A program made the translations under genes and the position numbers. From the NCBI GenBank assembly GCA_041738615.1, contig JBGSPL010000001.1:158564-222563 (forward strand): a stretch of DNA of 64,000 nucleotides, in the 5' to 3' direction. Shown in pieces: positions 7,693-62,389 of the stretch; the stretch's first letter is position 1; each line of letters begins with the position of its first letter. The notes under the pieces are model-generated. The model was not told the DNA's origin. It worked only from the letters and a program-made list of their open reading frames with translations, and made no database searches. This DNA comes from Patescibacteria group bacterium. Its GTDB lineage: Bacteria; Patescibacteriota; CPR2; UBA1875; CAIMLA01.

Positions 7693-7693
7693 C

Positions 7694-8119
7694 TTAGTCG
7701 GTAAAGGCAACGCCGGCGATGTTCCCCTTGTTCTTTAGGGTCTCGTTTACAATTTCGACCACATCAGATGGGGTGTGCTCGGCTTTTATCAGGTAATCGG
7801 TAGCGCCAGCAGTGAAGCCGTTGGTCATCTGGTCTATCTCGCCAAAATTTGAAAGAATAATAACAGGAGTTTCCTTGGTGGGGTCGTATTTACGGAGTTG
7901 CTTAAGAACCTCAAAGCCGTTCATCACGGGCATCATAACGTCAAGTAAGATAATGTCTGGAAGCTCCTTCTTCGCCATATCTAGTCCCTTACCGCCATCT
8001 TCGGCGGCGAAGACCTCGAAACCACTTTTCTCGAGCTTTATACAATACAAATCACGAATTGATTTGTCATCTTCTACTATAAGTAATTTTGTTTTAGCCA
8101 CAGTTACCTCCGTTGACAT
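7694..8119 (-). CDS. Stand-alone response regulator receiver domain (CheY-like)
   Basis: 141 aa; LLIVEDDKSIRDLY...ILLDVMMPVMNGFEVLKQLR...KETPVIILS: phospho-acceptor Asp and conserved Lys context; no output domain. Confidence 0.8.
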   Translation of the reverse strand: MSTEVTVAKTKLLIVEDDKSIRDLYCIKLEKSGFEVFAAEDGGKGLDMAKKELPDIILLDVMMPVMNGFEVLKQLRKYDPTKETPVIILSNFGEIDQMTNGFTAGATDYLIKAEHTPSDVVEIVNETLKNKGNIAGVAFTD

Positions 8120-8143
8120 TATTATAGACGACTAATTTCAGAT

Positions 8144-10225
8144 TTAAAACTCTTTTAGATATGAACGGTCAGGATTTGTTGTGGGAATTGTCCCCTCCTT
8201 GAAATATTCTAAGATATTTGGGCTGCCTTGCCAAGTAGCTAGAGCGCCGGTATAAGGGTTTACCCAGGCCTGTTTGATGTTTGCGGGTTTTGGGAAGGGC
8301 GTGTCAGCTTTGTCGGCTAAAGCAGCGGTCATGATATCGTGCCAGACATAGGCTGCACCCTCGACTCCAGAAACATTTTTCATTGGCGCGTGGTCATTAT
8401 TCCCCATCCAAACTCCAACAACATAATCTGGAGAGTAGCCCATAGTCCACGAGTCGCTATAGTTGTCAGTGGTTCCAGTCTTTACGGCTGTGGTCTTGTC
8501 CGTTTTGAGCGGACTTACGCTGCCGAATGTCACCGAACGAGCATTGTTGTCCGAAAGGATGCTGCTAATAATGTATGCGGTCTCTTCACTAATGACTTGA
8601 TTCTTTACCCTGGTTGGTAGGGTTACTGTGTCTCCGCGATTGTTTTTAATGGAAAGAATCGCCGATTGTGGTGCTCGTTTGCCCCCGTCCGCAAAAGTAG
8701 AGAAGGCTTCTACCATATCAACTAGCTTCACTTCACCCGAACCAAGAGACAGTGGCAATCCATAATTATCAGGCCCAGAATTTAGCGATGATATTCCTAA
8801 CCTATGCGCCGTATCAATTACCTTCTCGAGTCCTACTAACTTGCCCATTTCGACTGCTGTGGTATTTAGAGACCTAGCTAGAGCGTTTCGCACGGTTAGA
8901 TAACCAGAATACCCACCACTATAGTTTTTCGGGGAGTAGGTTGGGTTGCTGCCAAACGATAAATATTTGTCGACAAGAATGGATGCAGCAGAGTAGCCGT
9001 TCTCAAGCGCCGTAGCATAGACCAGGGGCTTAAACGAAGATCCTGGTTGTCTTTCGCTCGTGGCAACATTGACCTTGCTGGTATTCCAATCGGCCCCGCC
9101 CACCATCGCAAGGATTGTGCTTGTTTTGGGGTCGGCCACCACTGCGGCGGCATTACTCGCGCCTTTGTAGGAAAGAGTGACAAGCTTTTCCTTGACCTGT
9201 TGTTCTGCGACGGCTTGCAGCTTTGGATCCAGACTGGTATATACCTTGAGCCCCTTCTCTGAAATGTTATCCTCCCCCAGCTTCGTCGCAAGCTCATCCT
9301 TCACATATTGTGAGAAATAGGGGTATTTATCAAAAGAATCAACCTTGCCTACAAGGGTAAGAGGCTCGTTGGCAGCAGCTTTCGCCTGCTCTAGTGTAAT
9401 CATTTTGGCACCTAGCATCTGCTGCAAGACATATTCTTGACGCTTTTTTGCCTGCAAATAATTTACTCCTAGGGGGTCGTAGTACGTTGGTGCCTGGGGC
9501 AAACCAGCCAGCATTGAAGATTCAGCGAGGTCTAGCTGAGAGAGATCCTTGTCAAAGAATACCCTAGCTGCATTCTTGATGCCCAAAGCCTGCTCACCGT
9601 AGTATATCTCGTTTAGATACATTTCGAGGATTTGGTCTTTACTGTACTTTTCTTCAAGCTTTGAAGAGAAGACGGCTTCTTTGATTTTACGTTCGAAGCT
9701 TTTCTCGGACGTGAGGTAAACATTCTTCACGAGTTGTTGAGTAATGGTGCTGCCACCTTGTGAGTAATTGCCCTCAGAAAAAAGGTTCGTGAGTTTTTCA
9801 ATTCCGCTTCCCTTACTGTTTTGCCAGTTTACATAGGCGGCTCTGGCAAGGCCCTTTAGATATATTGGCCCATGGTTATAAAATTCTAGGTCTTCAGCGG
9901 CTAGGGTTGCCTTCTTAACGTCCTCAGGGATGTCTGCAAGCTTGACTCTATTTGGCTCAGCAGCACCATAACCGCGAAAGATTTCCCCGCCGTCTTTGTC
10001 GTACATCACGAGCTGCGTCGAGTTGCTCTGGGGCTTAATCTTGGCAAATTCCGCCGAATATTTGAAATATAGTCCTAGGGTACCAAAGAAAACTGTAAGA
10101 AATAGCCCGGTAAATAAAAGCCCCAGCCCTACCATAAGGACGCGAAAAAACTTTAGCGTCACCTTCTTGGTTTTCGCCAGAGCATTTGAATAGGTCGTAA
10201 TGATTAGTTCTTCTCGTTCTTTCAC
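8144..10225 (-). CDS. Class A penicillin-binding protein (transglycosylase + transpeptidase, PBP1A-like)
   Basis: 693 aa; N-terminal TM; GT51 motifs (EDLEFYNHGP, GGSTITQQLVKN), TP motifs (SSFKP, SxN, KTGT). Confidence 0.9.
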   Translation of the reverse strand: MKEREELIITTYSNALAKTKKVTLKFFRVLMVGLGLLFTGLFLTVFFGTLGLYFKYSAEFAKIKPQSNSTQLVMYDKDGGEIFRGYGAAEPNRVKLADIPEDVKKATLAAEDLEFYNHGPIYLKGLARAAYVNWQNSKGSGIEKLTNLFSEGNYSQGGSTITQQLVKNVYLTSEKSFERKIKEAVFSSKLEEKYSKDQILEMYLNEIYYGEQALGIKNAARVFFDKDLSQLDLAESSMLAGLPQAPTYYDPLGVNYLQAKKRQEYVLQQMLGAKMITLEQAKAAANEPLTLVGKVDSFDKYPYFSQYVKDELATKLGEDNISEKGLKVYTSLDPKLQAVAEQQVKEKLVTLSYKGASNAAAVVADPKTSTILAMVGGADWNTSKVNVATSERQPGSSFKPLVYATALENGYSAASILVDKYLSFGSNPTYSPKNYSGGYSGYLTVRNALARSLNTTAVEMGKLVGLEKVIDTAHRLGISSLNSGPDNYGLPLSLGSGEVKLVDMVEAFSTFADGGKRAPQSAILSIKNNRGDTVTLPTRVKNQVISEETAYIISSILSDNNARSVTFGSVSPLKTDKTTAVKTGTTDNYSDSWTMGYSPDYVVGVWMGNNDHAPMKNVSGVEGAAYVWHDIMTAALADKADTPFPKPANIKQAWVNPYTGALATWQGSPNILEYFKEGTIPTTNPDRSYLKEF

Positions 10226-28789: not shown

Positions 28790-28998
28790 CTCGAAGACAC
28801 ATTGGAATAAAATTCATAAAGCTTATGCGTTTTACTCCCTCGGTAGCGGATTAAGCCCTGTGGGCAGCTACTGTCTCCGGAAATTACCTTTGTATTTTAG
28901 CAAATTATCAGGAGAAGGTCAAGTTCAATATCTAAAGGCGTTAGTGCCGGCGCCCTGTGTGGTTGCCGGCACTAACAGTACCCCTTGCGCCGTTGGCG

Positions 28999-29376
28999 CT
29001 ACTTCGGACGAAGCTGAATCTCATGGTTCAGAGTGTCCTTCATGGACTGAGGGACCGCGTCATACCATGCGCTGGTCGCCGAGATGTACGGTCCTCGAAG
29101 CTCAGTGGGGAGCAACTCGCTGGTCCAGAGACCGAGGTAGAGCTTGTTGCCGCCGGTGACGATAAGAGACTCGCGGCTCGGACGACCTGGATGATTGCTG
29201 GCGGCCTTCAGAGCTTGCCATTGGCGCAGCGCACTGCGCACGTTCGCGCGATAGACCGCATCCAAGACATTGGAATCGTGGGCGAGTATGGACTCCCCCA
29301 GCTGTTCGAGAATTTCTCCGGCCTCCAGAAGCCTTGTGGTGTCCGCCTCGACTTGCTCTTTGCTCCTTGTGTCCAT
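28999..29376 (-). CDS. Hypothetical protein (125 aa), high GC
   Basis: MDTRSKEQVEADTTRLLEAGEILEQL...; SD AGGAGAG before ATG 29376; longer overlapping ORFs on both strands judged artefacts of GC richness. Confidence 0.4.
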   Translation of the reverse strand: MDTRSKEQVEADTTRLLEAGEILEQLGESILAHDSNVLDAVYRANVRSALRQWQALKAASNHPGRPSRESLIVTGGNKLYLGLWTSELLPTELRGPYISATSAWYDAVPQSMKDTLNHEIQLRPK

Positions 29377-29509
29377 GACGACTCTCCTGTTCGTCGGGTG
29401 TTGGGCATAGTGGTACTGCGTCTTGCGACGCCTAAATATAACATTATTGCCATATGTGGTCAAGAAGACCGGGGCGTGAGCAAAACGCCACCTAGGACCT
29501 CGTGTGGGG

Positions 29510-29833
29510 TTACAGACCCTTTGCAGCCTGTATTTCTCGGCGCATCTGCTCGAGATCTGGTTCACTTCCCTTACAGAAGAATGCGCGACAAACCTGAGGT
29601 CGGCGAGAGTGGATACTGCACTTGCCCCCAGTGAGATATATGCAGCTCCCATCCGTATTCTGCGCGACTATATTGGCACCACACTCAGAGGCCGTAGGAA
29701 AATTATCAAATATATCGGCTTTTGGGAACATAGCTAAGTATTTGCCTGACCGATACTCCTTCTCATTCAGATTGATAAGAAATAGCCGGCAGCAAATTCC
29801 GCACGCGTCACAACTGTCTTCGGTATGTTTCAT
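29510..29833 (-). CDS. YkgJ-family Cys-cluster protein (CxxCxxCC putative Zn/Fe-chelating domain)
   Basis: 107 aa; CDACGICC...C...C..C pattern characteristic of PF03692-type proteins. Confidence 0.65.
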   Translation of the reverse strand: MKHTEDSCDACGICCRLFLINLNEKEYRSGKYLAMFPKADIFDNFPTASECGANIVAQNTDGSCIYLTGGKCSIHSRRPQVCRAFFCKGSEPDLEQMRREIQAAKGL

Positions 29834-29895
29834 GTATACATTCTAGCAGCAATCTCATAAACCTTGAATCAGTAGTTCAAAAGTGCTATATTACA

Positions 29896-30390
29896 TTGTC
29901 ACTATACTGTGGCGACGAACTCAAGGACGGGGGTGAGCATGTGGCTCATGAAGAATTGGTACGGAGTATCACAGAGGCGATGCAGGAATTCGAACGGCAC
30001 AACGTGCTTGGCGACAAGCTAAAGGCCCAGGCAAGAGCGGAGTACGTTACCGCCGATGATTCACTGCGGCATCGAGCCGATGATATGGCAAAACTGTATT
30101 GCCATATCATGTCACAAAGCCTAGCTACTGACGAGATCAGGCAATCAAGTGCCTACATCATCATTGTGTGCAGAAACCAGGAGCACGTTGATGTTGATCT
30201 CTGTCAGGCCATCCTAGTGCTCGCGGATGCCTCCGGGGAGGTCCTGAGCGACCTCGATCGAGCGGCACGGAAGACCGATTTCCCTAGTCTGCGTGCCATC
30301 TTCTGTACGCTTCAGGTGGAAGAGTCCAAAGCCGACTACTACGCCATGGCCATCATGAAACTCTATCGCAGCACAGGTTGCTGCAACTAG
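29896..30390 (+). CDS. Hypothetical protein (about 150-164 aa; TTG or GTG start)
   Basis: High-GC ORF, protein-like composition; no motif recognised. Confidence 0.4.
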   Translation: MSLYCGDELKDGGEHVAHEELVRSITEAMQEFERHNVLGDKLKAQARAEYVTADDSLRHRADDMAKLYCHIMSQSLATDEIRQSSAYIIIVCRNQEHVDVDLCQAILVLADASGEVLSDLDRAARKTDFPSLRAIFCTLQVEESKADYYAMAIMKLYRSTGCCN

Positions 30391-30527
30391 CGCTCAAAGC
30401 GCGCGCTCCGTACTATCCGTACGACGGCGCTGCACTTTGGGCGCCTTTCGTATATATTCAAAAGAAGACGCCCCCGTTGCAAGGAAACAACGAGGTTGTC
30501 TTCTTTGCCGCGGGGGCGGTAGTCTGG

Positions 30528-30968
30528 CTACTCCGTGGTCGGACAGCTCTCACAAGGCTGTGGACTCGTGACACTGAGCATCCCTGGAATGGGAGCTTTG
30601 TGGAGCACCCAACAAGCTAGAGTGAGGTGGAAGCATGGGTTCAGGTGTGAACAGAGCCCGTTTCCGTCATCGAAGTGACCAAGATCGAGCAGGCGCGTAA
30701 TAAGCTCAGAACGCCTGGTGATACTCAGAACCGGGATGAGCTCCCTTACCTTGGTCGTCACATACAACACGTGGTCAACCTGTGCAACAACTCTGGCATA
30801 GCGCCACTTGTCGAGGAGGGGGTCAAGGAGATCCCACCAAGGGTAACTGTCCTGTCGGACATACAGAAGTTCCAGCTCCTCGCGAAGCCTCGAAAGGTGC
30901 TTTTCGGCACCCGCCAAGAAGGCGTGAAGCTGTTCCTCAACGACTTCGCTTTCGTGCTCCTCAAGCAT
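30528..30968 (-). CDS. Hypothetical acidic helical protein (146 aa)
   Basis: MLEEHESEVVEEQLHAFLAGAEKHLSRLREELELLYV...; preferred over the overlapping plus-strand ORF 30675..31166. Confidence 0.35.
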   Translation of the reverse strand: MLEEHESEVVEEQLHAFLAGAEKHLSRLREELELLYVRQDSYPWWDLLDPLLDKWRYARVVAQVDHVLYVTTKVRELIPVLSITRRSELITRLLDLGHFDDGNGLCSHLNPCFHLTLACWVLHKAPIPGMLSVTSPQPCESCPTTE

Positions 30969-32281: not shown

Positions 32282-32470
32282 TACATTATTATCCCTAGTT
32301 TCGGTTGCTAAAACTAGTAGACAGTCCCTCTTTGCAGGTAAATGTCATAATGCGCTATTCAAAACTCCGATTTAGTCGTATAATGCTCATGTTTTGCAGC
32401 TTTACAGACAGATAGTAGTTTACGTAGATTTCGGCGGCGATAATTGCCGAAAACAGGGAAGGAGCACTCC

Positions 32471-32644
32471 ATGTGCGGAGAAATACCGGCGGGATTTGGC
32501 CCGGGAGGAATTGGCTGGCTCGGGGATTGTCAGCCTGTCCAAGCTCCCAGTACAGCTGTACAGGGCGATACCACCAAGGCTAGTCTGGAGGTATCGGAGG
32601 CTTCGGCCCAAGACCCTGCCTCTAGCAGCGATACGCCGAGCTGA
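32471..32644 (+). CDS. Small acidic protein (57 aa) with strong SD
   Basis: GGAAGGAG-6 nt-ATG; MCGEIPAGFGPGGIGWLGDCQPV...; high GC; terminated by the hairpin at 32755-32795. Confidence 0.4.
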   Translation: MCGEIPAGFGPGGIGWLGDCQPVQAPSTAVQGDTTKASLEVSEASAQDPASSSDTPS

Positions 32645-32754
32645 CCCCCTCGATGCCCCCCACTCCCTATTTACTACTTTCTATCTACCGTCACTCAAGT
32701 GACAACCTGCACAGACTTGGCCGGATTCCACTCGTGGGACCCGGCCTAGTGCAT

Positions 32755-32795
32755 TAAAAAGGAGCGACCAAGCGGTCGCTCCTTGAGTATTTCTT
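32755..32795. terminator. Bidirectional terminator AAGGAGCGACC-AAGC-GGTCGCTCCTT
   Basis: Perfect 11-bp stem between convergent genes. Confidence 0.65.
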
Positions 32796-32798
32796 AGT

Positions 32799-33416
32799 CT
32801 ACAGTTTTACGTAAATCGTTTTGTTGCTCCAAAAGCTTGGTTTAAATACTAGCTTAAGGCCTGTGTCTCCCGCTGGGACCTCAAAAACCATTGTCCCTGT
32901 CACCTTACCGCCCGGTGCAAGGTTTCCAGAATTCAGCTTGTTCTCAGCGTCAACAAATGTCTCCGTTTTCAAGACGCCGCTACTGTCCTGAACCTGAAAA
33001 TCGAAGGTATTGAAACTCACCTGGTCTGTGCCGTTATTCTCAATACTTACCTCGACAAGAACATATTCTTTCCCTGACTCTGGAACCATATATTCATTGC
33101 CGGTGCTATAGTTTCGTGTTGCTTTAGTGACTCTTAGAATCTGCTTGTCTATACTCGCAGCTTCACCAACGATGTAATCTGATTTTGCAGCGGCAATCTT
33201 GGACTCAGTACTACTCTTACCCGTCGTGGTGGTAGTCGTTTTGCCGCCACCGGTGGCAGAGATAACTGCTCCAAGCAAAATGATACCCAGGATGACCGAG
33301 ATAACCTTATGTTGTACAAACCAATTTCTTAAATCTGCACCACAGTGCTTACATTTTACAGCGCCTTTTGCGATGTCCTCTTTACACTTTGGGCACTTTA
33401 CTACTTCTTCAGCCAT
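32799..33416 (-). CDS. Zinc-ribbon / single-TM / DUF4352-type beta-sandwich membrane protein
   Basis: 205 aa; CPKCK...CKHCG N-terminal zinc ribbon, TM helix, Thr-rich linker, C-terminal domain ...EYVLVEVSIENNGT...GTMVFEVP typical of DUF4352. Confidence 0.65.
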   Translation of the reverse strand: MAEEVVKCPKCKEDIAKGAVKCKHCGADLRNWFVQHKVISVILGIILLGAVISATGGGKTTTTTTGKSSTESKIAAAKSDYIVGEAASIDKQILRVTKATRNYSTGNEYMVPESGKEYVLVEVSIENNGTDQVSFNTFDFQVQDSSGVLKTETFVDAENKLNSGNLAPGGKVTGTMVFEVPAGDTGLKLVFKPSFWSNKTIYVKL

Positions 33417-33490: not shown

Positions 33491-34072
33491 TTATTTAGCG
33501 CCGTACACTACGAACCCTTGGTGCCTAAGATCCTCGGCGAGTTTCTTCTCTGCTGTCTGGGCCTCTTCTTTGGTCTTAATAGCACTAGGTACCCAAAGAT
33601 CTGTTCGCAAGATGGGATTCTCGGCTTTGCGGACTTTTACAGATGAATTGTAACCTGAGATATGTTGTGCAAGCCGTATTTCTGGGTCGTATATAGACTG
33701 TCCCACGTAAACCTTTTTGGGATTATTATCGAGCTCGATGACGTACAGCTGCCAGAAACCCTTTTGAAGGTGTGAGCCAGCTATTACTTGATAGTTCTTT
33801 TCTGTAAGTATCTCTACTTGGTCCAAAACGAGCTTCTTTGCTTCGTCTTCTGTGTTTATTGGCTTGATTTTAGCTGATTTTTCAACCAGCATTGCAGGCT
33901 TCTTGCCATGACGAACACTGCGCACAAACTTTTCAAAACACTTTTGGATGTGATCTTGGCTATACTGAATAAATAGCTTTCTGGAGCCCTTATTGATCTC
34001 GAAAATATATATCTGATAAGGAATGATCGCCGAATCGGGGCTGATATCTAGATTGGGAGTAACTTCTTTCAT
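33491..34072 (-). CDS. GIY-YIG nuclease-domain protein with uncharacterised N-terminal domain
   Basis: 193 aa; ...WQLYVIELDNNPKKVYVGQSIYDPEIRLAQHISG... fits GIY-(10-11)-YIG-...-R-...-H; AT-rich host-like composition. Confidence 0.6.
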   Translation of the reverse strand: MKEVTPNLDISPDSAIIPYQIYIFEINKGSRKLFIQYSQDHIQKCFEKFVRSVRHGKKPAMLVEKSAKIKPINTEDEAKKLVLDQVEILTEKNYQVIAGSHLQKGFWQLYVIELDNNPKKVYVGQSIYDPEIRLAQHISGYNSSVKVRKAENPILRTDLWVPSAIKTKEEAQTAEKKLAEDLRHQGFVVYGAK

Positions 34073-34200
34073 GAGTGTATTATAACGTACTTTTGTGCTT
34101 AATAATAGGTAAACCTACAGTTACGAAAGGCGCCCAGTAGTGCAGCGCCAATCTTGCGGATAGGCGTGCGCTCTGGGCGCTTGGTGACCAACTAGCCGTG

Positions 34201-34671
34201 TTACGAAACCGGTTCGGTGGCGTATTGCCGGGTTGGCTTTGGCTCTTCGTAGAGAGGGTTCTCGATGCGGCCGCCGACGACGGCCTGCTTGTAGGTGTCC
34301 TGGTCGACGATGATGGTGAAGTCGAGCTTGTCCCAGTATGTGGGCTCGTCGTCGCCTGGGTCGGCTAGTACAGCGTAGCGCGCACGGACAAGTAGCTCGA
34401 AACAGGTCGGTTCCCCGAGCTCCCACGGGTAGGATGAGAGTAGAGATAGGTCATTTCCAAGTGGGCCGTTCGTGAACGAAAGCGCTGGCGCGAGCTTCTC
34501 GACGACCGTGACGTACCGGTGGCTCTTCTTGATTGCCACCTTCTCGTTTCTATTGTCGATCGCGATGGCGCAGATGAACAAGACGATAATAATGACCACC
34601 AGTGCGACGATGAGGGCCAGGAAGCCCCCAGTAATCGCAAGTGCCCATTGCCACCAAGCCCAATACGGCAT
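34201..34671 (-). CDS. Hypothetical N-terminally membrane-anchored protein (156 aa), high GC
   Basis: SD GGGGAGGGG before ATG; TM LALIVALVVIIIVLFICAIAI then soluble domain. Confidence 0.5.
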   Translation of the reverse strand: MPYWAWWQWALAITGGFLALIVALVVIIIVLFICAIAIDNRNEKVAIKKSHRYVTVVEKLAPALSFTNGPLGNDLSLLSSYPWELGEPTCFELLVRARYAVLADPGDDEPTYWDKLDFTIIVDQDTYKQAVVGGRIENPLYEEPKPTRQYATEPVS

Positions 34672-34740
34672 GACCCCTCCCCTGACGAAGTGACCTTACG
34701 CCTTAGTATAGGCAAAGATTACAAATAGTCAAGAGTATAT

Positions 34741-34790
34741 ACGAAAAGAGTCCGCGCCGGAGGCGCATAGCGCAGACTCCTTCGCGGACC
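34741..34790 (-). repeat. Copy 1 of ~50-bp palindromic terminator-like repeat
   Basis: ACGAAAAGAGTCCGCGCCGGAGGCGCATAGCGCAGACTCCTTCGCGGAC; minus strand forms a long imperfect hairpin followed by TCTTTTCGT; sits just 3' of gene 34797..35804. Confidence 0.7.
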
Positions 34791-34796
34791 GTAGTG

Positions 34797-35804
34797 TTAG
34801 GACCCGATACTTGACGTGTCTTCGTCATCCTTAGACAGCTCGATACCCTCTTCTTCCTCGTAGTGAATGTCGATCGGTCCTGGCATGTATGAAGCAATCA
34901 CCTGGCAGATAGCGACATCGAGGCCGTCGTCCTGCCAATCCTTGCCTGGACTACGAACAACAACGATACCGCCGAGGATTTCACCGACGAGAACGAGTCC
35001 GGGAATCTGACCTATCTCGAGCCGTATCTCTGGTAGAGCCAAGCTAGAAGCTGCGGGTCGACCCAAATCGTCGAAATCTCCACCGAATGGATATGGGTGA
35101 TAAGGAGGCAACCCGTAGACAGTGTAACGGTGGACGTTCTCGGCTAGCGCGTCGATGTAGATGAAAAGCAATGGGTTGTCTCCGTTGCGCTTCTCTCGAA
35201 CGAGGCTGTCGATTTCGCCAACCAGTACTTTGACCTTCTCTGAGACATCAGCGGAACCGATGAACCCAACGGCTTTGTCGGCTGGGTCTGACGTCTCGAG
35301 GTCTTCCCACAATTCCTCAGAAGTGAGACCTGAGAGCTCGCGACGAAACTCGTCGACAATGTCATGTGTCGCGAGCTCTTGTTTGCGCTGACGCGCGATT
35401 TCTTCAGTCACAGCTTCGTCAAGACCGACGAGGATAGAGGTGATGAACGCCTCTAGCTCGATAAGCTCATCGGTAGCCACCCGGCTCTTTGCCAACATTC
35501 GTTTGTAGGTGAATTGAGCTTGCCGCGCTTCCTCGGTAAGATCAGAGTGATTCTTCTTGTACTCCTGGGCAATGCCCTGGATCCACCTCGACCGGCGCAT
35601 CTTGAGAAAGATCTCACCGGTATCGTCGGTGAGTTCCTCGGCCGGTAGGATGAGCATCCTCTCGAGCAACACCATCACTGACGAAAGGTTCGGCAGTAGT
35701 CTCTCGGGCTCTTCGTAGCCTACGACCTCAAAGTCATGAGCGACGGCGGCGAGGCAGTCGATCACGTCTCGCACCCATGCTGTGCTGGTGTCATGGAACG
35801 ACAT
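34797..35804 (-). CDS. Hypothetical acidic protein (335 aa), high GC
   Basis: SD GGAGGGAG-6-ATG; no recognisable catalytic motif; flanked on both sides by the palindromic repeat. Confidence 0.55.
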   Translation of the reverse strand: MSFHDTSTAWVRDVIDCLAAVAHDFEVVGYEEPERLLPNLSSVMVLLERMLILPAEELTDDTGEIFLKMRRSRWIQGIAQEYKKNHSDLTEEARQAQFTYKRMLAKSRVATDELIELEAFITSILVGLDEAVTEEIARQRKQELATHDIVDEFRRELSGLTSEELWEDLETSDPADKAVGFIGSADVSEKVKVLVGEIDSLVREKRNGDNPLLFIYIDALAENVHRYTVYGLPPYHPYPFGGDFDDLGRPAASSLALPEIRLEIGQIPGLVLVGEILGGIVVVRSPGKDWQDDGLDVAICQVIASYMPGPIDIHYEEEEGIELSKDDEDTSSIGS

Positions 35805-35890
35805 GACCGGCTCCCTCCGTCGGTTTTCAAGGTATCGTTGTCCTTGCGGGTATTATACATAAGGCCACTAGATATACAAGCCCCATAAAC

Positions 35891-35940
35891 GAAGGGAGTC
35901 CGCGCCGGAGGCGCATGGCGCAGACTCCTTCGCGGACTCG
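35891..35940 (-). repeat. Copy 2 of the palindromic repeat (about 3 mismatches to copy 1)
   Basis: ACGAAGGGAGTCCGCGCCGGAGGCGCATGGCGCAGACTCCTTCGCGGACTC just 3' of gene 35971..36288. Confidence 0.7.
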
Positions 35941-35970
35941 TGTTGCCGTACACACGGCTGAAGGGGATGT

Positions 35971-36288
35971 CTACAGACAGAATCTCTCCGGAACCTTGAA
36001 GCGGAAGGGAGAGAATTCCCTCTTCGGTGCAGGACGATAGTAGCCTATACAAGGGCTTTCGTCCTCTGCTTCAATCAGAACGTAGAGCTCCTGCCCGTGT
36101 AGCTGCTTCTTGAGAAACTCCAGAACTGGGCCTATCTTGCCTCGATTACCCTTGGGTTTGTAGTAGAGGCAGAAGTAGAGAATCCCTTGGTACCGCCTCA
36201 GTACTACCTTGCCGTTCACCCACTGGCGAACGATTTCTGTCACCTCTTCGGGTGTCAAGGGACGGTTGTTCGTCTTCCTTCTTCCCAT
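35971..36288 (-). CDS. Hypothetical basic protein (105 aa)
   Basis: SD GAGAGGGGAAAC-ATG; MGRRKTNNRPLTPEEVTEIVRQW... Confidence 0.45.
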   Translation of the reverse strand: MGRRKTNNRPLTPEEVTEIVRQWVNGKVVLRRYQGILYFCLYYKPKGNRGKIGPVLEFLKKQLHGQELYVLIEAEDESPCIGYYRPAPKREFSPFRFKVPERFCL

Positions 36289-36423
36289 GTTTCCCCTCTC
36301 GGCGTTCGGAACTATACAACAAGCGTACTAGTTTGCACCTCCATTTGTCGTAGGTGACGCTTGTGGATTCTGTAAGGTACTCTCATCGGTATACCCAGAT
36401 GTCGGGAAACGGGCAGCTGACCC

Positions 36424-36750
36424 CTAGGAAACCAGGGCGGCGGCGATGAAGGCGAGCAGCTCGCTCGGCTTGGACGAGTGAACGTGGACTTCCTGAAGGC
36501 CACTCGGCCGACGGTCGATGACCTTCACCCCGACGACAGGGGCTTCCTTGCCCGGTGTGCAGGCGTGCAGCTCAGTGGCCCTGCGGTAGGGCCTTGCGGG
36601 ACGCATCGGCTTCTCGGTAGGCTTAGCGCTCTTGTGCGTAATGCGGGCGGTTGGGTCAGGACAGTCCTCATGAGCGAGGATTGCCTGGACGTCACCGAGA
36701 AGCGGAAAGGCCTTCTGGCTGTGCTTTTCGCGCTGAGATCGAGTTGACAT
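36424..36750 (-). CDS. Hypothetical protein (108 aa), high GC
   Basis: SD GGGGAGAAC before ATG 36750; first gene after the island's right-end promoter. Confidence 0.45.
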   Translation of the reverse strand: MSTRSQREKHSQKAFPLLGDVQAILAHEDCPDPTARITHKSAKPTEKPMRPARPYRRATELHACTPGKEAPVVGVKVIDRRPSGLQEVHVHSSKPSELLAFIAAALVS

Positions 36751-36845
36751 TCGTTCTCCCCTGTCGATGCCTACAAGACTGGTACTTAACCTATACTCCC
36801 TTCGGCATGATGCAACCGCATCCTTGGATCCCTTAGAATGCTAAG

Positions 36846-36875
36846 ATTATATCCCCTAGATAGGGCAAAACGCAA
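36846..36875 (-). promoter_or_regulatory. Candidate promoter TTGCGT-18-TATAAT with a palindrome (CCCTA-GA-TAGGG) in the spacer
   Basis: Minus-strand -35/-10 read directly; positioned ~90 nt upstream of gene 36750 and reading leftward into the island. Confidence 0.35.
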
Positions 36876-55944: not shown

Positions 55945-57015
55945 ATGATGCAAGAGAAACTACAAAGAATCAAAGAGCAATTTGACGAAATCGAGGCGAA
56001 GCTTAGTAACCCCGAGGTTATTGCCGACCAAAAACAACTGATGAATCTGAGCCGTGAACGCGTCTCTCTCCTTCCTCTAGTAGAACTTTACGAAAAATAC
56101 ACTAAGGTTGCTCTTGAGTTTCAAGAATCGGAGGAAATCCTCAAATCGGAAGGTGACCCAGAGATGGTTTCTATGATTGAAGAAGAAGTAACCACCCTTA
56201 AAGAACAATTAGAAAAACTTACCAAAGAAATTGAGCTAGAACTGCTACCAAAGGATGAAAACGACAACAAGAACGTAATTGTCGAAATCCGCGCCGGAGC
56301 TGGGGGTGATGAATCGGCCCTTTTTGCAGCCGAGCTTTTCAAGATGTATAGTCGCTACGCAGAGGTACATAAATTCAAAGTGGAGATAATTGATGCTCAC
56401 GAAAACGAAATCGGAGGGTATAAAGAGATCATTTTCTCACTGGCCGGCCAGAACGTCTACAAGCACCTGAAATTCGAGAGCGGCGTACATAGAGTTCAGA
56501 GAGTCCCCGAGACCGAATCCGGTGGCCGTATTCATACCTCTACCGTAACAGTCGCTGTCCTACCTGAAGCCGAAGAGGTGGATGTGGAAATAAATCCAGC
56601 GGAGATTCGAGTAGACGTCTTCCGCTCCTCGGGGCCCGGCGGGCAGAGTGTCAATACTACCGATTCTGCAATTCGCATTACTCACCTCCCGACTGGACTC
56701 GTGGTTTCATGCCAAGATGAGAAATCGCAAATCAAGAATCGCGAGAAAGCAATGAAGGTTCTACGTTCCAGACTGCTTGTCCAGAAACAGGAAGAAGAAG
56801 CCAAAAAGCGAGGTGATGCCAGAAACAGCCAGATAGGAACCGGCGATCGCTCAGAAAAAATACGTACTTACAACTTTCCGCAGGACAGAATCACCGATCA
56901 CAGAATAGGTTTTAGCGTAAACAACTTACCAGATTTTATGGCTGGGAATATCGATAAAATGCTCGACCAGCTCACAGAAGCAGACCGAGAAAAAGCCCTT
57001 GAAGGGATCTCTTAA
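55945..57015 (+). CDS. prfA: Peptide chain release factor 1
   Basis: GGQ motif ([12 protein letters not shown]), [17 protein letters not shown] recognition loop (RF1-type PxT); start may be second ATG 55948. Confidence 0.93.
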
Positions 57016-57029
57016 ATTCAGGGGGGCAG

Positions 57030-58205
57030 TTATTGACTTTCAGAAAGCTGAATAGTCGCTGTCTTGGTCTTGCCATCACGAAGCCAAGTAATCTTGACAC
57101 TTTCCGAAGGAGAATGTTTTGAAAGCAAGGAGATCAAACTCTTCTGGGCTGTAATCTTATCCAATCCTAGCTCTGTGACAATATCACCTGGTTGCAGGCC
57201 TATCTTAGCTGCCGGGCTACCTGCAACAACGGCTGGCGAGGCCGCATTGTTTGAATATATATATGCCCCCTCATAAACAGGTAGATTGTTCTGTGTTGCG
57301 GTATCTTTTGTTAACGAAACATAGCGTACCCCGAGCATTGCACGAACGATTTTCCCTTTGGTAAGATAGCTATCCAGGGCGGACTTTATCAGTTCGACGG
57401 GTAGCGCAAAGCCGATTCCTTGGCCCTGAGAGTCGACTGCCGTATTCATTCCGATGACTTGGCCGGCGATGTTGAGTAGCGGGCCACCAGAATTCCCGGA
57501 ATTTATAGCTGCATCTGTCTGAATAACGTTGTCAAGAGACTCTGTAGACGTCCCTGTGGAGTCGCTGGCCTCAATAACCCGCCCCATACCCGAAATCACG
57601 CCTACAGTGACGCTGTTTTGATATTGGCCCAAGGCATTACCAATAGCGATGGCTGTCTGTCCAGCCACGAGGTCAGCCGTAGAGCCAAGCTCGACCGTTG
57701 GTAGGTTGGAAGCCTCAATCTTTAGTATCGCTATATCAAAGAGAGGGTCCAGTGACTTCACAACCGCTGAATACGTTTTACCGTCGTTTGTTATCACGCT
57801 GTACTTGGTGGCGGCATTGCCTGCCACATGCTTATTGGTTACGATAATCCCGTCTTTGCTTACAATATAGCCCGTGCCAGCAATTTCCGAGCTGCTCGCC
57901 TGTCCAAAGAAATTCACGCTCTCTGTTACACCAGTGATACTGACTACTGCGGGCATCGCCTGCTCGGCAGTAGTTGTGATTGCTGAACTTTCCTTAATAT
58001 TTATGGTGGCATTTGAAATTTTTGAAGAGCTCTTTACGGGACCAAAGTAGTTGATATACACAAAGCTCCCCATTAGACCACTGGCTACAGATAAAGTTAC
58101 AAGCAAGGCGCCCCAGAATAACTTCGTTCTATCCACTGTCACGACCCTCTGAAGCTTTTTGGGTTCTAAGGGCTCTTCGTTTTGCGGTAAACCATTCTCT
58201 TCCAT
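57030..58205 (-). CDS. htrA: HtrA/DegP-family trypsin-like serine protease with PDZ domain
   Basis: Catalytic TNKHV (His), D, GNSGGPL (Ser) and C-terminal PDZ; N-terminal TM; probable start MEENGLPQ. Confidence 0.85.
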   Translation of the reverse strand: MEENGLPQNEEPLEPKKLQRVVTVDRTKLFWGALLVTLSVASGLMGSFVYINYFGPVKSSSKISNATINIKESSAITTTAEQAMPAVVSITGVTESVNFFGQASSSEIAGTGYIVSKDGIIVTNKHVAGNAATKYSVITNDGKTYSAVVKSLDPLFDIAILKIEASNLPTVELGSTADLVAGQTAIAIGNALGQYQNSVTVGVISGMGRVIEASDSTGTSTESLDNVIQTDAAINSGNSGGPLLNIAGQVIGMNTAVDSQGQGIGFALPVELIKSALDSYLTKGKIVRAMLGVRYVSLTKDTATQNNLPVYEGAYIYSNNAASPAVVAGSPAAKIGLQPGDIVTELGLDKITAQKSLISLLSKHSPSESVKITWLRDGKTKTATIQLSESQ

Positions 58206-58221
58206 GCTTCCTCCGAGATTA

Positions 58222-59058
58222 TTAGCTAATTGGCAACCATTTCGCCGTAACAAACAGGATGACAAAAAACATTATAGTAAAAAGCAGGTACTCTGTCAGA
58301 ACCTTACGAGTCAGATTCTGGTCCAACTTGTGAGAAATCATTCCCCAGAGAAAATAATATGTCAAAGTAATTACGATTGCCGCTATCGGGGTCCCGCCAA
58401 GGGTCGCTTTTTCTGTGGTGCCGAGTACCGGATAGTTGATCGACCAGATAGAACCCACCCAGGCCATCTGAGCGCACAAAAATGCTGATATAACACCATA
58501 GGCACGATCTTTTGATTCTAGCGCCCCCTTTTCCCAGGTAAGAAAATATGTTACGAAATAGATTAGACCAAAAACTGCGAGCACTATCGCTGCACGCACA
58601 TAGTTTATCGTGCCGCGTTCGGAAACCGACATCAGCAGTCTGAATAGCATCGAAGTGGAGAGAAAGACCGTAAAAAATGATATAACGATGAGAACGTTTC
58701 TGTACAAAAGAGCTGCTCGATCTGCCAGGTTACGAACTTTTCTAAGAGAAATAAACAGGTAAAAGTTCGCGATGATAGCGAGCAATGTTAGTACGAGTCG
58801 TCCTATACCGATATAGACAAAAGAAATATATGAAAGTGCCGAAACGTTAAAAAGGAGGGGCATCATCAGGAACTTGAAGTTTGTAAAGAGAGAATCTCTG
58901 TTTAGCTGCATATTAAAGAAATACTTTGCACAGACAGCAACCATCACAAGTGCAGAGGTCACCGAGAAAACGATAAGCTCGGGGCGAATGAAATTAAAAA
59001 TATAGACAACTGAAATAACCGAAACTGCTATTATACTATTCTTGGTAATTTGCTTCAT
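58222..59058 (-). CDS. Hypothetical polytopic membrane protein (278 aa)
   Basis: ~8 hydrophobic helices; no motif. Confidence 0.45.
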   Translation of the reverse strand: MKQITKNSIIAVSVISVVYIFNFIRPELIVFSVTSALVMVAVCAKYFFNMQLNRDSLFTNFKFLMMPLLFNVSALSYISFVYIGIGRLVLTLLAIIANFYLFISLRKVRNLADRAALLYRNVLIVISFFTVFLSTSMLFRLLMSVSERGTINYVRAAIVLAVFGLIYFVTYFLTWEKGALESKDRAYGVISAFLCAQMAWVGSIWSINYPVLGTTEKATLGGTPIAAIVITLTYYFLWGMISHKLDQNLTRKVLTEYLLFTIMFFVILFVTAKWLPIS

Positions 59059-59064
59059 GATAAC

Positions 59065-60510
59065 CTACGACTTTGTTGGATAGTTTGAGCCTATAATAAT
59101 CTCTATGTCAGCCCCACTTGCGGAAGTACCCGTGCCCCTAGTTGCTTTGGCGGAAAAAAGTTTCTCCAGGGCTGCGATAGTAGATTTCTTGGCACCACCA
59201 GTATAGTCAATTATTGCATTTTGTGAATAAGTGGCTGTATCTGCCGTACTTATGTCTATTACATTATACCCTGTGGAGGTAAGGTTAGTAGCCGCTTTGT
59301 TCGCGAGGCCAGAGGTTGTAGTACCGTTTTGAACCGAGATCGAGGCATTTTCGGACTGGACCGAATTATCTTCAAAGATATTTTTTACGGCAGCTTGAAG
59401 CTTGCTATAATTGTATATACCCGCCCTAGGCACCAGGATATAGCCAGCGGCTCCGCTGTCGTCAATCAGTAGCCCCTCTGGGGAATTATCAAAAACCTTA
59501 TTCTTAATCTTAGCAGAATCGACGCCCTTAAAGAGCTCGATACCTCGTGGTATCTCTCCTACCGAGAAATCTGTTTTCAAGTGTTTTCCGAGCGCAGTGG
59601 CTATGTCAGAAATCTTTTGTGGATTAAGAAAGGTATCAACCGACATGACCTTGGTTTTTATCGCCGTGAGAACGATCTGCTGTCTTCTCGCCCGATCAAA
59701 GTCACTGGTAGTTTCACGAGACCTGGCATAACGCAGCGCGGTATCGCCACTCATATGCTGCTGTCCCTTTTTGATATAAAGGGCCTTGTTACCCAGACCG
59801 TCATCAGAAGGATACAGAGGGTCGTAGAGATCCTCAGTGACGTTGACATCAATACCACCAACAGCATTTACAATTTCTTTCAGTCCTGTAAAGTCTACTC
59901 GCGCATAGTAGTGAATAGGAGTCCCCAGAACTTCACTAATGGTCTTTGTTGCTAGCGCCGGACCACCGCCGGCGTATTTGTAGTATTCTCCGTAGGCATG
60001 CGCGGCATTTATCTTTGCGCTGCCATAGTCATCGATCTTAACATACAGGTCCCTAGGGACAGAAATCATCGCTGCTTGCTTGGTCTTTACGTCGTAACTT
60101 ATGACCATGATGGTATCAGAGAGATTCGCTCCATCATGTCCAGTATCTCCAACACCAAGTAAGAGAATGTTTATCCTGCCAGAGCTCTCCCCCTTTAACT
60201 GCTGGCCACTAAACAGGCTGAGTACGTTGGAACCACCGCCAAACATCGATGCCAAACGACTATACATATTCCAACCAAAGACGCCTAGACCAGCAAGCAC
60301 CACAGTCAACACCGCAAGTACAAGATATAGTTTAAGGTGTTTGATTTTTCTTTTACCTCGTTTATTGAATTTTACCGGTGTTCGGCCCTTGTTGTCCATT
60401 CTTGGGGACGATTCTTGGGGAGAGATGCTAGTAACACTCTTTTCAATCTCGTCTATAGTAAGTTTCTTTTTCTTTGCATCTTGTTTTTTCATCTTTACTA
60501 TTATAGACAA
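59065..60510 (-). CDS. LytR-CpsA-Psr (LCP) family cell-envelope phosphotransferase with C-terminal LytR_C-like domain
   Basis: N-terminal TM; INILLLGVGDTGHDGANLSDTIMVISYD...ISVPRDLYV LCP core. Confidence 0.85.
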   Translation of the reverse strand: MSIIVKMKKQDAKKKKLTIDEIEKSVTSISPQESSPRMDNKGRTPVKFNKRGKRKIKHLKLYLVLAVLTVVLAGLGVFGWNMYSRLASMFGGGSNVLSLFSGQQLKGESSGRINILLLGVGDTGHDGANLSDTIMVISYDVKTKQAAMISVPRDLYVKIDDYGSAKINAAHAYGEYYKYAGGGPALATKTISEVLGTPIHYYARVDFTGLKEIVNAVGGIDVNVTEDLYDPLYPSDDGLGNKALYIKKGQQHMSGDTALRYARSRETTSDFDRARRQQIVLTAIKTKVMSVDTFLNPQKISDIATALGKHLKTDFSVGEIPRGIELFKGVDSAKIKNKVFDNSPEGLLIDDSGAAGYILVPRAGIYNYSKLQAAVKNIFEDNSVQSENASISVQNGTTTSGLANKAATNLTSTGYNVIDISTADTATYSQNAIIDYTGGAKKSTIAALEKLFSAKATRGTGTSASGADIEIIIGSNYPTKS

Positions 60511-60575
60511 TATATCCTAGACAGCCAATACTTTTTATCCGATAATTGTACAAGCAATAGAACTAAAGTGAGGGA

Positions 60576-61472
60576 GTGCCAGTGTTAGGGTTAATAATCG
60601 TTGTATATTCAATCTACGTTCTCGGAGTTGGGAAGATGATCTGGTCAAAGAAGGTCCAACTGGTTGGTACAGAAGCCAGGGTGATGGCTGTATATTTCCT
60701 CTTTCTCGCTTTTTTCCTAGCAATCATTGCCCCACAGGTCTTTCCAGCATTTTCTTCAAACCTTTTTCTTCGAGTTCCGGTTTCACTTGGCCTAGTATTT
60801 CTTTTTCCTTACCTCTATGTTGTCGTACGAGATCTCGTTACAAAATCAGATAAGAAAGCTCAGATTGAGACCGAGGCCTATATGGGCTGGGAGATATTCA
60901 AAACCATAGTGGGAGTGGCACTCTTTGTGGTTTTCTTCCGATATTTTGTTATCCAGCCTTTCTACATAATCGGCAACAGCATGAACCCAGGTTTCCTGCA
61001 GGGTGAATACCTATTTATCGACGAAGCAAGCTACTATCTCCGCGCTCCTGCTCGAGGCGAAGTTGTTGTTTTCAAACACCCAGAGAGTGGCTGCACGGAG
61101 TTTGTGGAACAGAACAAATTCTGGAGCCGAATTGCACAAGGCCCTTGTACTAGCTACATCAAGAGAGTGATCGCGCTCCCCGGCGAAACTGTCACACTAA
61201 AAAACGGCAAATTCAAAATCAAGAATAAAGAATACCCAAGCGGAATCACTCTCAGCGAGGATTATATCGAACCAGGCGTAACAACACTGGGAGACCAAAC
61301 AGTTACTCTGGCCAAGGATGAATACTTTGTAATCGGCGACAACAGAGAACCGAATCAAAGTTACGACTCCAGACAGTGGGGCCCGCTAAAACGCGACTAC
61401 ATAACAGGCAGGGCTTGGCTACGGATGCTACCAGTGGACAAACTAGGCTTTATAACAAAAGCTAAATACTAG
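60576..61472 (+). CDS. lepB: Signal peptidase I with long N-terminal membrane extension
   Basis: GNSMNPGF (Ser box), YIKRVIALPGE (Lys box), FVIGDNREPNQSYDSRQWG. Confidence 0.85.
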   Translation: MPVLGLIIVVYSIYVLGVGKMIWSKKVQLVGTEARVMAVYFLFLAFFLAIIAPQVFPAFSSNLFLRVPVSLGLVFLFPYLYVVVRDLVTKSDKKAQIETEAYMGWEIFKTIVGVALFVVFFRYFVIQPFYIIGNSMNPGFLQGEYLFIDEASYYLRAPARGEVVVFKHPESGCTEFVEQNKFWSRIAQGPCTSYIKRVIALPGETVTLKNGKFKIKNKEYPSGITLSEDYIEPGVTTLGDQTVTLAKDEYFVIGDNREPNQSYDSRQWGPLKRDYITGRAWLRMLPVDKLGFITKAKY

Positions 61473-61475
61473 AAC

Positions 61476-61521
61476 AAAAGACAGAAGGCCGCCCGAAAGG
61501 GCGGTCTTCTGTCTTTTAACT
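61476..61521. terminator. Bidirectional terminator with 18-bp perfect stem (AAAGACAGAAGGCCGCCC-GAAA-...)
   Basis: Between convergent lepB and parB. Confidence 0.75.
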
Positions 61522-61528
61522 TTTGGCC

Positions 61529-62389
61529 TTATTTAGAGGTTAGGTTTCTATATATTCGATCTAGATCTTCTGGACTGTAGAAATCGATTGTTATTCGACC
61601 GCCGGTGCCACTGGTTTTAATCAATACCTTCGTCCCCATTACCTCAGAGAGGCGCTTCTCTGCCGCACGCACGTTCGGATCCTTCCGAACTTTGGTCGTG
61701 TTTTTCTCCTTCACGTGATGCTCGGCCTGTCGTACGTTTAGCCCGTCGCTAATGATACGGTGATAGAAGGCCAACTGGCCTTCGCGACTCTCTATCGCCA
61801 TGATGCTCCTGGCGTGCCCTTCGGTTATTTTACCTTCCATGAGCCCCTGCTTGATCTCTGCTGGCAATGTAAGGAGACGTAGGGCATTCGCTACCGTAGA
61901 TCTTGCCTTTCCGACCTTCTTAGCGGCATCTTCTTGCGTAAGGTTGAACTCTTCCATTAACCGTTTGTAAGAAAGGGCTGCCTCTATAGGACTCAGGTTT
62001 TCGCGTTGAATATTTTCAATTATGGCAACTTCGAGCTTCTTTTGCTCGTCAAACGTCCTCTCGATAGCTGGGACCTTGGTAAAACCTGCCAGCTTAGCCG
62101 CTCTCAGACGTCTCTCACCCGCAACCAGCTGATAACGCCCGTTATCTGCTTTGGTAACCAAAAGGGGCTGTATGATGCCGTATTCTCGGATTGATGCTGC
62201 CAGCTCTGCCAGAGGAGCTTCGTCGAAACTCGTTCTTGGCTGGTGTGGATTTGGATCGACCAGATTGATGTCGATTTCGATGTCTCCAGCCTTTGCCTGA
62301 GCATTGTCATCATCTACTGGAATTAATGAATCCAGCCCTCTCCCTAAACCAAAATTACTCTTTTTCTTCTTTTCCTCTACTGGCTGCAT
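61529..62389 (-). CDS. parB: Chromosome partitioning protein ParB/Spo0J
   Basis: 286 aa; IQPLLV, GERRLRAAKLAG, HTH. Confidence 0.9.
   Translation of the reverse strand: MQPVEEKKKKSNFGLGRGLDSLIPVDDDNAQAKAGDIEIDINLVDPNPHQPRTSFDEAPLAELAASIREYGIIQPLLVTKADNGRYQLVAGERRLRAAKLAGFTKVPAIERTFDEQKKLEVAIIENIQRENLSPIEAALSYKRLMEEFNLTQEDAAKKVGKARSTVANALRLLTLPAEIKQGLMEGKITEGHARSIMAIESREGQLAFYHRIISDGLNVRQAEHHVKEKNTTKVRKDPNVRAAEKRLSEVMGTKVLIKTSGTGGRITIDFYSPEDLDRIYRNLTSK

Follow-up and report, generated by a model that had tools for sequence, protein, structure and literature searches.

Phage morons, as reportedly described by Hendrix and colleagues, are autonomous promoter-gene-terminator units with a deviant base composition that are inserted between genes. 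Here, we describe units of a similar kind in a Candidatus Saccharibacteria genome. They occupy positions 34201-36875 of a 64,000-nucleotide stretch of contig JBGSPL010000001.1 (GenBank assembly GCA_041738615.1, positions 158,564 to 222,563), which we refer to as the window, and comprise four minus-strand open reading frames (ORFs), A, B, C and D. As in morons, the units consist of a sigma-70-like promoter, one ORF and a terminator-like stem-loop (the signals being recognized at the consensus level), their GC content at third codon positions (GC3) differs from that of the neighboring genes, and they are present or absent between close relatives. Unlike morons, they lie between the core genes MetK and PIF1 of a cellular chromosome rather than in a prophage, they lack relatives among PHROGs and viruses, and several of them have one sequence-conserved hairpin in common. 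The explanation that we favor, with a confidence somewhat better than even, sees them as accessory cassettes, self-contained and moron-like, that occupy a plasticity site of the chromosome where MetK meets PIF1.

Three other described systems invite comparison. The minimal mobile elements of Neisseria, a concept attributed to Saunders and Snyder, are said to be alternative cassettes between conserved flanks that are exchanged by transformation and homologous recombination. The present locus resembles them in that what lies between the conserved MetK and PIF1 flanks varies (a gap of 37 nt, 2.2 kb or 4.6 kb) and includes no mobility genes, and in that the lineage is naturally competent, as reported for Saccharibacteria (PMC10633639). 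It differs in that its contents are GC-shifted orphans with a common hairpin, which minimal mobile elements are not known to have. The likeness to integron attC sites is that single-gene cassettes end in an imperfect palindrome, the structure of which is better kept than its inner sequence, and that cassette boundaries fall at a short core. However, attC core motifs and an integrase are absent here, the cassettes have their own promoters, and the copy number is very low. Repetitive extragenic palindromic (REP) sequences, finally, occur in tens to hundreds of copies per genome, behind ordinary genes. Like them and the bacterial interspersed mosaic elements (BIMEs), the hairpin that we call T1 is a conserved GC-rich palindrome directly behind stop codons, for which a stabilizing or terminating role is plausible, but it is present only twice in 64 kb and solely behind GC-rich orphan genes.

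The four ORFs are co-directional and have exactly the coordinates given in a preliminary description of the DNA (Table 1). A fifth gene, which that description had counted, does not exist in the interval. Each ORF is preceded at a distance of 5-8 nt by a G-rich Shine-Dalgarno sequence (GGGGAG, GAGAGGGG, GGAGGGAG and GGGGAGGGG), matching the strong motifs noted previously. The characterization as high-GC was also correct: the interval forms an island of 52-65% GC against a background of about 46%, and the GC3 values of A to D lie between 0.62 and 0.74, compared with 0.43-0.50 for host and neighboring genes. High-GC3 outliers are confined to two islets flanking a block of PIF1, DUF4352 and GIY-YIG genes, together with a GC-rich gap upstream of PIF1. 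The flanks consist of core genes, with a DEAD helicase and MetK on one side and PIF1, rplJ/rplL with an L10 leader, Tgt, DnaX and DnaB on the other. Only 6 nt separate the MetK stop codon from the -35 element of the promoter-like site ahead of A (P_A).

Table 1. Features of the MetK-PIF1 cassette locus in the window, and copies of the T1 hairpin in related contigs.
Feature	Position	Strand	Description
P_A promoter-like site	36846..36875	-	TTGCGT (36875-36870), 18-nt spacer, TATAAT (36851-36846), read from sequence
Gene A leader (5' untranslated region)	36751..36845	-	about 90 nt
Gene A	36424..36750	-	108 aa, basic, Pro-rich, orphan
Gene B	35971..36288	-	105 aa, basic, small alpha/beta protein, orphan
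Hairpin T1, copy behind B	35885..35939	-	GUCCGCG-AAGGAG-inner stem-CCGG-CGCGGAC-UCCCUUCGU; 77 bits with model R1
P_C promoter-like site	35852..35879	-	TTGTAT, 16-nt spacer, TATAAT, read from sequence
Gene C	34797..35804	-	335 aa, very acidic
Hairpin T1, copy behind C	34737..34791	-	72.8 bits with covariance model
P_D promoter-like site	34705..34732	-	TTGACT, 16-nt spacer, TATACT; 10/12 consensus matches
Gene D	34201..34671	-	156 aa, N-terminal transmembrane anchor, singleton
Hairpin T2 behind D	34122..34149	-	GGCGCUGCACUACUGGGCGCC-UUUCGUA; right-hand end of the segment missing in L002
Segment P_C-C-T1-P_D-D-T2, here but not in L002	about 34127..35884	-	from L002 alignments
T1 in relatives	L052 7328-7380; L053 266-324 and 1387-1448		

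The evidence for a plasticity site comes from comparison with relatives. A MetK scan with one genome per species retrieved mainly metagenome-assembled genomes (MAGs) of Candidatus Saccharibacteria. The closest was L002 (MetK 89% identical), an independent MAG from another study that is likewise labelled Candidatus Saccharibacteria. In more distant Saccharibacteria, represented by about 25 loci, the gap between MetK and the start of PIF1 measures about 37 nt. The junction in L002 reads MetK-A-B-GIY-YIG-PIF1 and spans about 2.2 kb, with C and D not present, and the junction in the window reads MetK-A-B-C-D-GIY-YIG-DUF4352-PIF1 and spans about 4.6 kb. The 37-nt gap elsewhere and the differing contents here indicate that the junction is a site of gene gain or loss in the genus. 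Since A and B are present in L002 without C and D, the four genes do not form one obligatory system. The DUF4352 gene, which encodes a zinc-ribbon/DUF4352 protein (32799-33416), is not in L002 either and constitutes a third presence/absence module within the MetK-PIF1 interval. It has its own TTGACA-18-TAAAAT promoter, a palindromic terminator and normal GC. Exact look-ups of core proteins for other strains spanning the islet returned the same sample only.

The borders of the variable segment could be located to the base. The alignment with L002 is continuous up to the T1 copy behind B, where it ends in ...GGACTCCYTTCGT. It resumes directly past the hairpin behind D, at ...GGGCGCCTTTCGT/AA, and continues into the promoter of the GIY-YIG gene. 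The segment with C and D starts right after ...CTTCGT and ends in ...TTTCGT, and its flanks align from the first outside base.

C is bracketed by a direct repeat of 53 nt (35885-35937 and 34737-34789, period 1148 nt), the copies of which are 92% identical; shuffles of the window gave zero matches of this kind. The repeat corresponds to the near-identical palindromes of about 50 bp that had previously been seen behind two of the genes, here assigned to B and C. The two copies fold at -27 and -40 kcal/mol (z -3.3 and -4.4). Altogether, T1 was found in 6 copies in 4 contigs, flanking every homologue of C. It lies behind both remote homologues (P0004 in genome L052 and P0005 in contig L053), and in L053 it also precedes the gene. 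A covariance model searched against 839 kb of Saccharibacteria DNA recovered exactly these 6 copies at 60-77 bits, with everything else below 17 bits.

The consensus of T1 is GUCCGYG - AAGGRG - variable inner stem-loop - YCGG - CGCGGAC - YYYUUCGU. In the six-copy alignment, 97% of the pair cells are standard pairs and 3 pairs show compensatory changes; in a control with partners slid by 1-3 columns, only 39-52% of the cells were paired. The outer stem and the AAGG loop are invariant in sequence, and the inner stem varies with compensation. Because T1 flanks both distant C homologues and carries compensatory changes, it is more conserved than the proteins that precede it. Between the window and L002, the first 51 nt of T1 are about 90% identical, compared with 58% for the 31 nt before it.

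The second hairpin, T2 (GGCGCTGCACT..TGGGCGCCTTTCGTA), behaves similarly. Near-identical copies are located behind another GC-rich gene, X164 (window 30426-30455, plus strand), and at the orthologous site of L002. The hairpin is nearly unchanged between the two genomes, although the adjacent protein is only 43% identical. The near-constancy of T1 and T2 between genomes indicates that the hairpins are constrained in sequence as well as in fold.

The T1 copy behind C passed a terminator scan; its inner stem is terminator-like, and it is followed by the tail GACUCUUUUC. The copy behind B ends in the U-poor tail UCCCUUCGU. Rfam contained no match to the hairpins or to the island, even at E values of up to 10. 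Pattern scans of viral contigs for the hairpin gave 2, 48 and 16 matches, all attributable to chance: the matches were located within coding sequence, mostly of high-GC phages, and had no hairpin or TTCGT tail. A metagenome scan with a loose pattern gave at least 120 chance matches, and no true copy was among the matches listed; a loose AAGG...CCTT scan of the loci was uninformative. We rejected the possibility that T1 is a DNA-uptake sequence, since only 2 copies are present in 64 kb, and the possibility of an antisense mini-ORF within it, since the ATG is found in one copy only. As a separate observation, the invariant 5' loop GAAGGAG resembles a Shine-Dalgarno sequence; the tail CUCCUUUC is its complement and looks like an anti-Shine-Dalgarno sequence. 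Pairing of the two would create an alternative long stem, and thus two mutually exclusive folds, in the T1 copies of the window and L002.

The promoter-like site P_A of the window could be read directly as TTGCGT-18-TATAAT, as the preliminary description had it. L002 retains TTGCAT-18-TATAAT at this position, with 22 of 30 nt identical. A palindrome in the spacer had been suggested as a possible operator. It is indeed present in the window (CCCTA-TC-TAGGG), but it is not conserved in this form in L002, where CCTAGG is found instead. The leader of A is 81% identical between the two genomes and the A-B spacer 36%. This spacer is free of hairpins in the window; in L002 it contains one, within an insert of 71 nt. 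Parts of the 5' untranslated region downstream of P_C are also conserved in the C cassettes of L052 and L053. With hairpins behind B, C and D and promoter-like hexamers before C and D, the locus does not fit the single operon proposed previously but about three units. Judged by consensus matches and folding, three transcription units (A-B, C and D) are probably the most economical arrangement, in which A and B would probably be co-transcribed from P_A in the window genome.

A and B encode small basic proteins (pI 9.75 and 9.71). Gene A is 90% identical to its L002 orthologue; 32 of the 45 differences are at third codon positions, and dN/dS is 0.10. For B, 34 of 52 differences are at third positions and dN/dS is 0.14. 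With the exception of the codon-phased antisense frame, the other reading frames of the two genes gave values above 1. These figures clearly point to A and B being coding genes under purifying selection. C is very acidic (pI 4.41, net charge -35). In D, a single strongly hydrophobic segment (about residues 15-38; KD19, i.e., 19-residue Kyte-Doolittle, maximum 3.71) precedes a soluble domain of about 110 aa. The earlier summary of the protein properties (basic, very acidic, and membrane-anchored products) was accurate in this respect.

Large protein-database searches were run for B and C only. A full HMMER search of 1.84 billion representatives identified two remote homologues of C (E values 1e-32 and 2e-07), which implies that C is coding. 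A word-indexed protein search with C found only C itself, and a profile search with the C family added nothing new. The B family consists of B itself and its L002 counterpart (word-indexed search of 5.8 billion proteins). The families are near-orphans, with two members for B and three for C among billions of proteins. Each of the four proteins is alone in its own 90%-identity cluster. D has a coding-like GC1/2/3 pattern with a GC3 of 0.74, a strong Shine-Dalgarno sequence, a promoter-like site and a hairpin; no relatives of D were found in any fetched locus or in viral contigs.

Searches of A to D against Pfam, PHROGs, PADLOC and NCBIfam gave no specific match. With PADLOC, A, B and D had zero matches and C had one at chance level (E 0.012, 12.5 bits). 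No match was obtained in the PDB by sequence, and fold searches returned generic matches at most and no toxin or immunity fold. The proteins are thus as uncharacterized as they had appeared at first sight. BLAST searches of phages and plasmids at the DNA and protein levels found nothing, and scans of viral contigs with A, B, C and D found no relatives. Paralogy among the GC-rich orphan genes was considered and rejected, as none was detected.

The AlphaFold 2 (AF2) model of C, built from three sequences, has a mean predicted local distance difference test (pLDDT) score of 62.7. It predicts, with confidence, a helical bundle at the N terminus (pLDDT 86-95 over about residues 6-140), which is joined by a disordered acidic linker to a lower-confidence beta-alpha-beta, ferredoxin-like C-terminal domain. 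The homologue P0004 is 31% identical to C and located at a different site, between a kinase gene and an ATP-grasp gene. The homologue P0005 is located on a metagenome contig of 1.4 kb. As L052 belongs to the same genus as the window (SHMT 90% identical) and its C homologue is nevertheless only 31% identical, the C family evolves very fast. Proteins of the neighboring islet are 42-49% identical between the window and L002, and core proteins 83-99%. The fast divergence of the C family and of these islet proteins suggests a niche or conflict role and not a housekeeping one. At four-fold sites, the divergence is 0.35-0.38 for A and B, 0.38-0.41 for rplJ and rplL, and 0.53-0.74 for other genes.

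According to the explanation that we favor, each cassette would consist of a sigma-70-like promoter and a strong Shine-Dalgarno sequence ahead of a single GC3-rich orphan ORF, with a conserved hairpin that ends in YTTCGT behind it. The older residents would be A and B, which are common to the sister species and under purifying selection. C and D would be separate, strain- or species-specific cassettes. Recombination at the hairpin/TTCGT junctions may have brought them into the window genome or removed them from the relative. The position of C between two 92%-identical hairpins is what would be expected from a single crossover between hairpin-carrying DNA and a resident hairpin. At the RNA level, we infer that the hairpin may serve as a terminator and 3' stabilizer insulating each cassette, and at the DNA level it might offer portable homology through which a naturally competent lineage could exchange cassettes. 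The predicted products, two small basic proteins, an acidic cytoplasmic two-domain protein and a single-pass membrane protein, are lineage-restricted. The genes are indeed uncharacterized and of foreign composition, and they come with expression signals of their own and with repeated hairpins of terminator-like form; the preliminary description of an uncharacterized cassette was a fair reading in this sense.

Members of the candidate phyla radiation have very small genomes, and much of the biology of their host interactions is commonly attributed to lineage-specific genes without annotation. Accessory islets of near-orphan genes are common in the Saccharibacteria; this one gains interest from a covarying hairpin of conserved sequence that accompanies the cassettes. 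The present locus would be a comparatively anchored example of ready-to-express single-gene modules entering a streamlined genome at one core-gene junction, and the T1 model offers a searchable marker for further cassettes of this type.

Several points weigh against this explanation. With two syntenic genomes only, a gain of C and D in the window is indistinguishable from a loss in L002. The coding status of D is without comparative support, and the promoters and terminators are consensus matches only. Owing to its U-poor tail, the T1 copy behind B may not necessarily be a terminator. A donor, plasmid or phage with A to D was not found in the phage and plasmid BLAST searches and the viral-contig scans. 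High expression is compatible with the low four-fold divergence of A and B, and so is later transfer or a shared recent origin. GC-rich orthologues in the neighboring islet are still GC-rich through saturating divergence, which is awkward for a simple recent import and suggests that the GC-rich composition is actively maintained.

The preliminary description had noted a resemblance to toxin/immunity or defense cassettes. In such an arrangement, D or one of the small basic proteins would be an effector or toxin, and C a neutralizer, DNA mimic or sensor. The pairing of an acidic with a membrane protein, the variable islet adjoining a PIF1 helicase and a GIY-YIG nuclease, and the great speed at which the C family has diverged within a single genus would all be in keeping with this reading. 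However, A to D match no PADLOC, Pfam, PHROG or NCBIfam model, and as neither a PADLOC model for A to D nor a toxin or immunity fold was found, the resemblance is unsupported. The PIF1 protein does match RecD-like PADLOC models, but it is the phylum-wide neighbor of MetK and not part of the island. C and D are 125 nt apart and each have their own promoter-like site and hairpin, unlike tightly coupled pairs. Moreover, C homologues occur without a D-like neighbor, for example in L052 between the kinase and ATP-grasp genes, and A and B are found without C and D. The independent occurrence of A-B, C and D weakens this explanation, and we regard it as unlikely.

A decayed remnant of a prophage, plasmid or integrative and conjugative element (ICE) from a donor of higher GC content, with the genes as leftover cargo, would account for the foreign GC3, for Shine-Dalgarno sequences stronger than those of neighbors such as the leaderless-looking GIY-YIG gene, for the moron-like unit structure and for the differing presence in close relatives. 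The borders, however, contain no integrase, att repeats or tRNA, and no relative was found in phages, plasmids or viral contigs at the DNA or protein level. The only homologues are located in chromosomal contexts of the same genus, and purifying selection acts on A and B, which are syntenic in two species. An origin of this type appears improbable to us.

The position of each cassette boundary directly behind a hairpin-YTTCGT sequence also brings to mind an integron-like, site-specific system, in which the hairpin and its YTTCGT core would be an attC-like site and circular cassettes would be captured by some recombinase. Integration of a circle with one site would leave C between direct hairpin copies, as observed. 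The invariant outer stem and AAGG loop, combined with a compensating inner stem, are reminiscent of protein-recognized sites, and C homologues located in different parts of the chromosome come with this same hairpin. Against this, the T1 and T2 sequences lack RYYYAAC/GTTRRRY cores, the cassettes carry their own promoter-like sites, and no integrase or recombinase was seen in the part of the 293-kb contig that was covered, namely the interval, its neighbors and 10 further ORFs of the window. Furthermore, only 2 copies of T1 are present in 64 kb, D ends in a different hairpin (T2), and YTTCGT may be a mere terminator tail. We give an integron-like system little credence.

A broader possibility, to which we assign a low probability as well, is that T1 is the signature of an undescribed Saccharibacteria cassette system, in which self-expressing, GC-rich, fast-evolving orphans are captured and shuffled at a structured site ending in TTCGT or are marked for a dedicated RNA- or DNA-binding factor. 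If this were true, the candidate phyla radiation would have, in the T1 cassettes, an analogue of integron cassettes that carries its own promoters. T1 as a recombination or recognition site would mean a new gene-capture mechanism; T1 as only a terminator would mean an ordinary islet of orphan genes.

An assembly chimera or contamination, with GC-rich fragments of another organism stitched into the contig, is suggested by the sharp GC steps and by the break of an independent Logan assembly of the same sample at about 30422-30446 within the neighboring islet, but it is effectively refuted by the same A-B arrangement between MetK and GIY-YIG in the independent MAG L002, by a Logan contig that runs unbroken from MetK through C and D to PIF1, and by junctions that align with L002 base for base.

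Several observations concern the surroundings of the cassettes. The GIY-YIG gene (33491-34072) has normal GC and is common to L002. A TATAAT located 7 nt upstream of its ATG suggests a leaderless mRNA. Its motif (VYVGQS…RLAQH) is closer to small YhbQ/Slx1-type GIY-YIG proteins than to homing endonucleases. Between the PIF1 start and the DUF4352 stop lies a GC-rich (54-57%) gap of about 500 nt (32282-32798), which is partly conserved in L002 (12728-13194) with two hairpins whose stems are kept and whose loops are changed. The gap had no Rfam match even at E values of up to 10, its minimum free energy (MFE) z scores are -3.0 on the plus and -2.5 on the minus strand, and a perfect palindrome (32759-32784) marks its end. 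The gap could represent an undescribed noncoding RNA or a decayed gene.

The second GC3-rich islet (28957-30968), which is bounded by PIF1 and the rplJ leader, is found in L002 as well. It contains three orphan genes, X217 (probably about 130 aa in reality), X164 and X146. Two Logan contigs (sample SRR28170474) end at about 30422-30446, where T2 lies between the convergent X164 and X146; strain variation or the palindrome may be responsible for this break. Further away, the region 55945-62389 of the window contains housekeeping genes (RF-1, an HtrA-like protease, an LCP family protein, signal peptidase, L31 and ParB), and no recombinase was seen there.

Two features of L052 were also noted. 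A GC-rich islet at 10029-10176 contains an ORF for a Cys-rich peptide of 48 aa (…GGCGCTNCSCGSCSNCGANCR), with a further ORF behind it, and looks like a precursor of a ribosomally synthesized and post-translationally modified peptide (RiPP) with its maturase. Directly behind the C homologue and its T1 copy, at 7454-8473, lies a GC-rich cassette with a TTGACA-17-TATAAT promoter and a strong Shine-Dalgarno sequence. Its product is a D-Ala-D-Ala-ligase-like ATP-grasp enzyme, indicating that such cassettes can carry enzymes.

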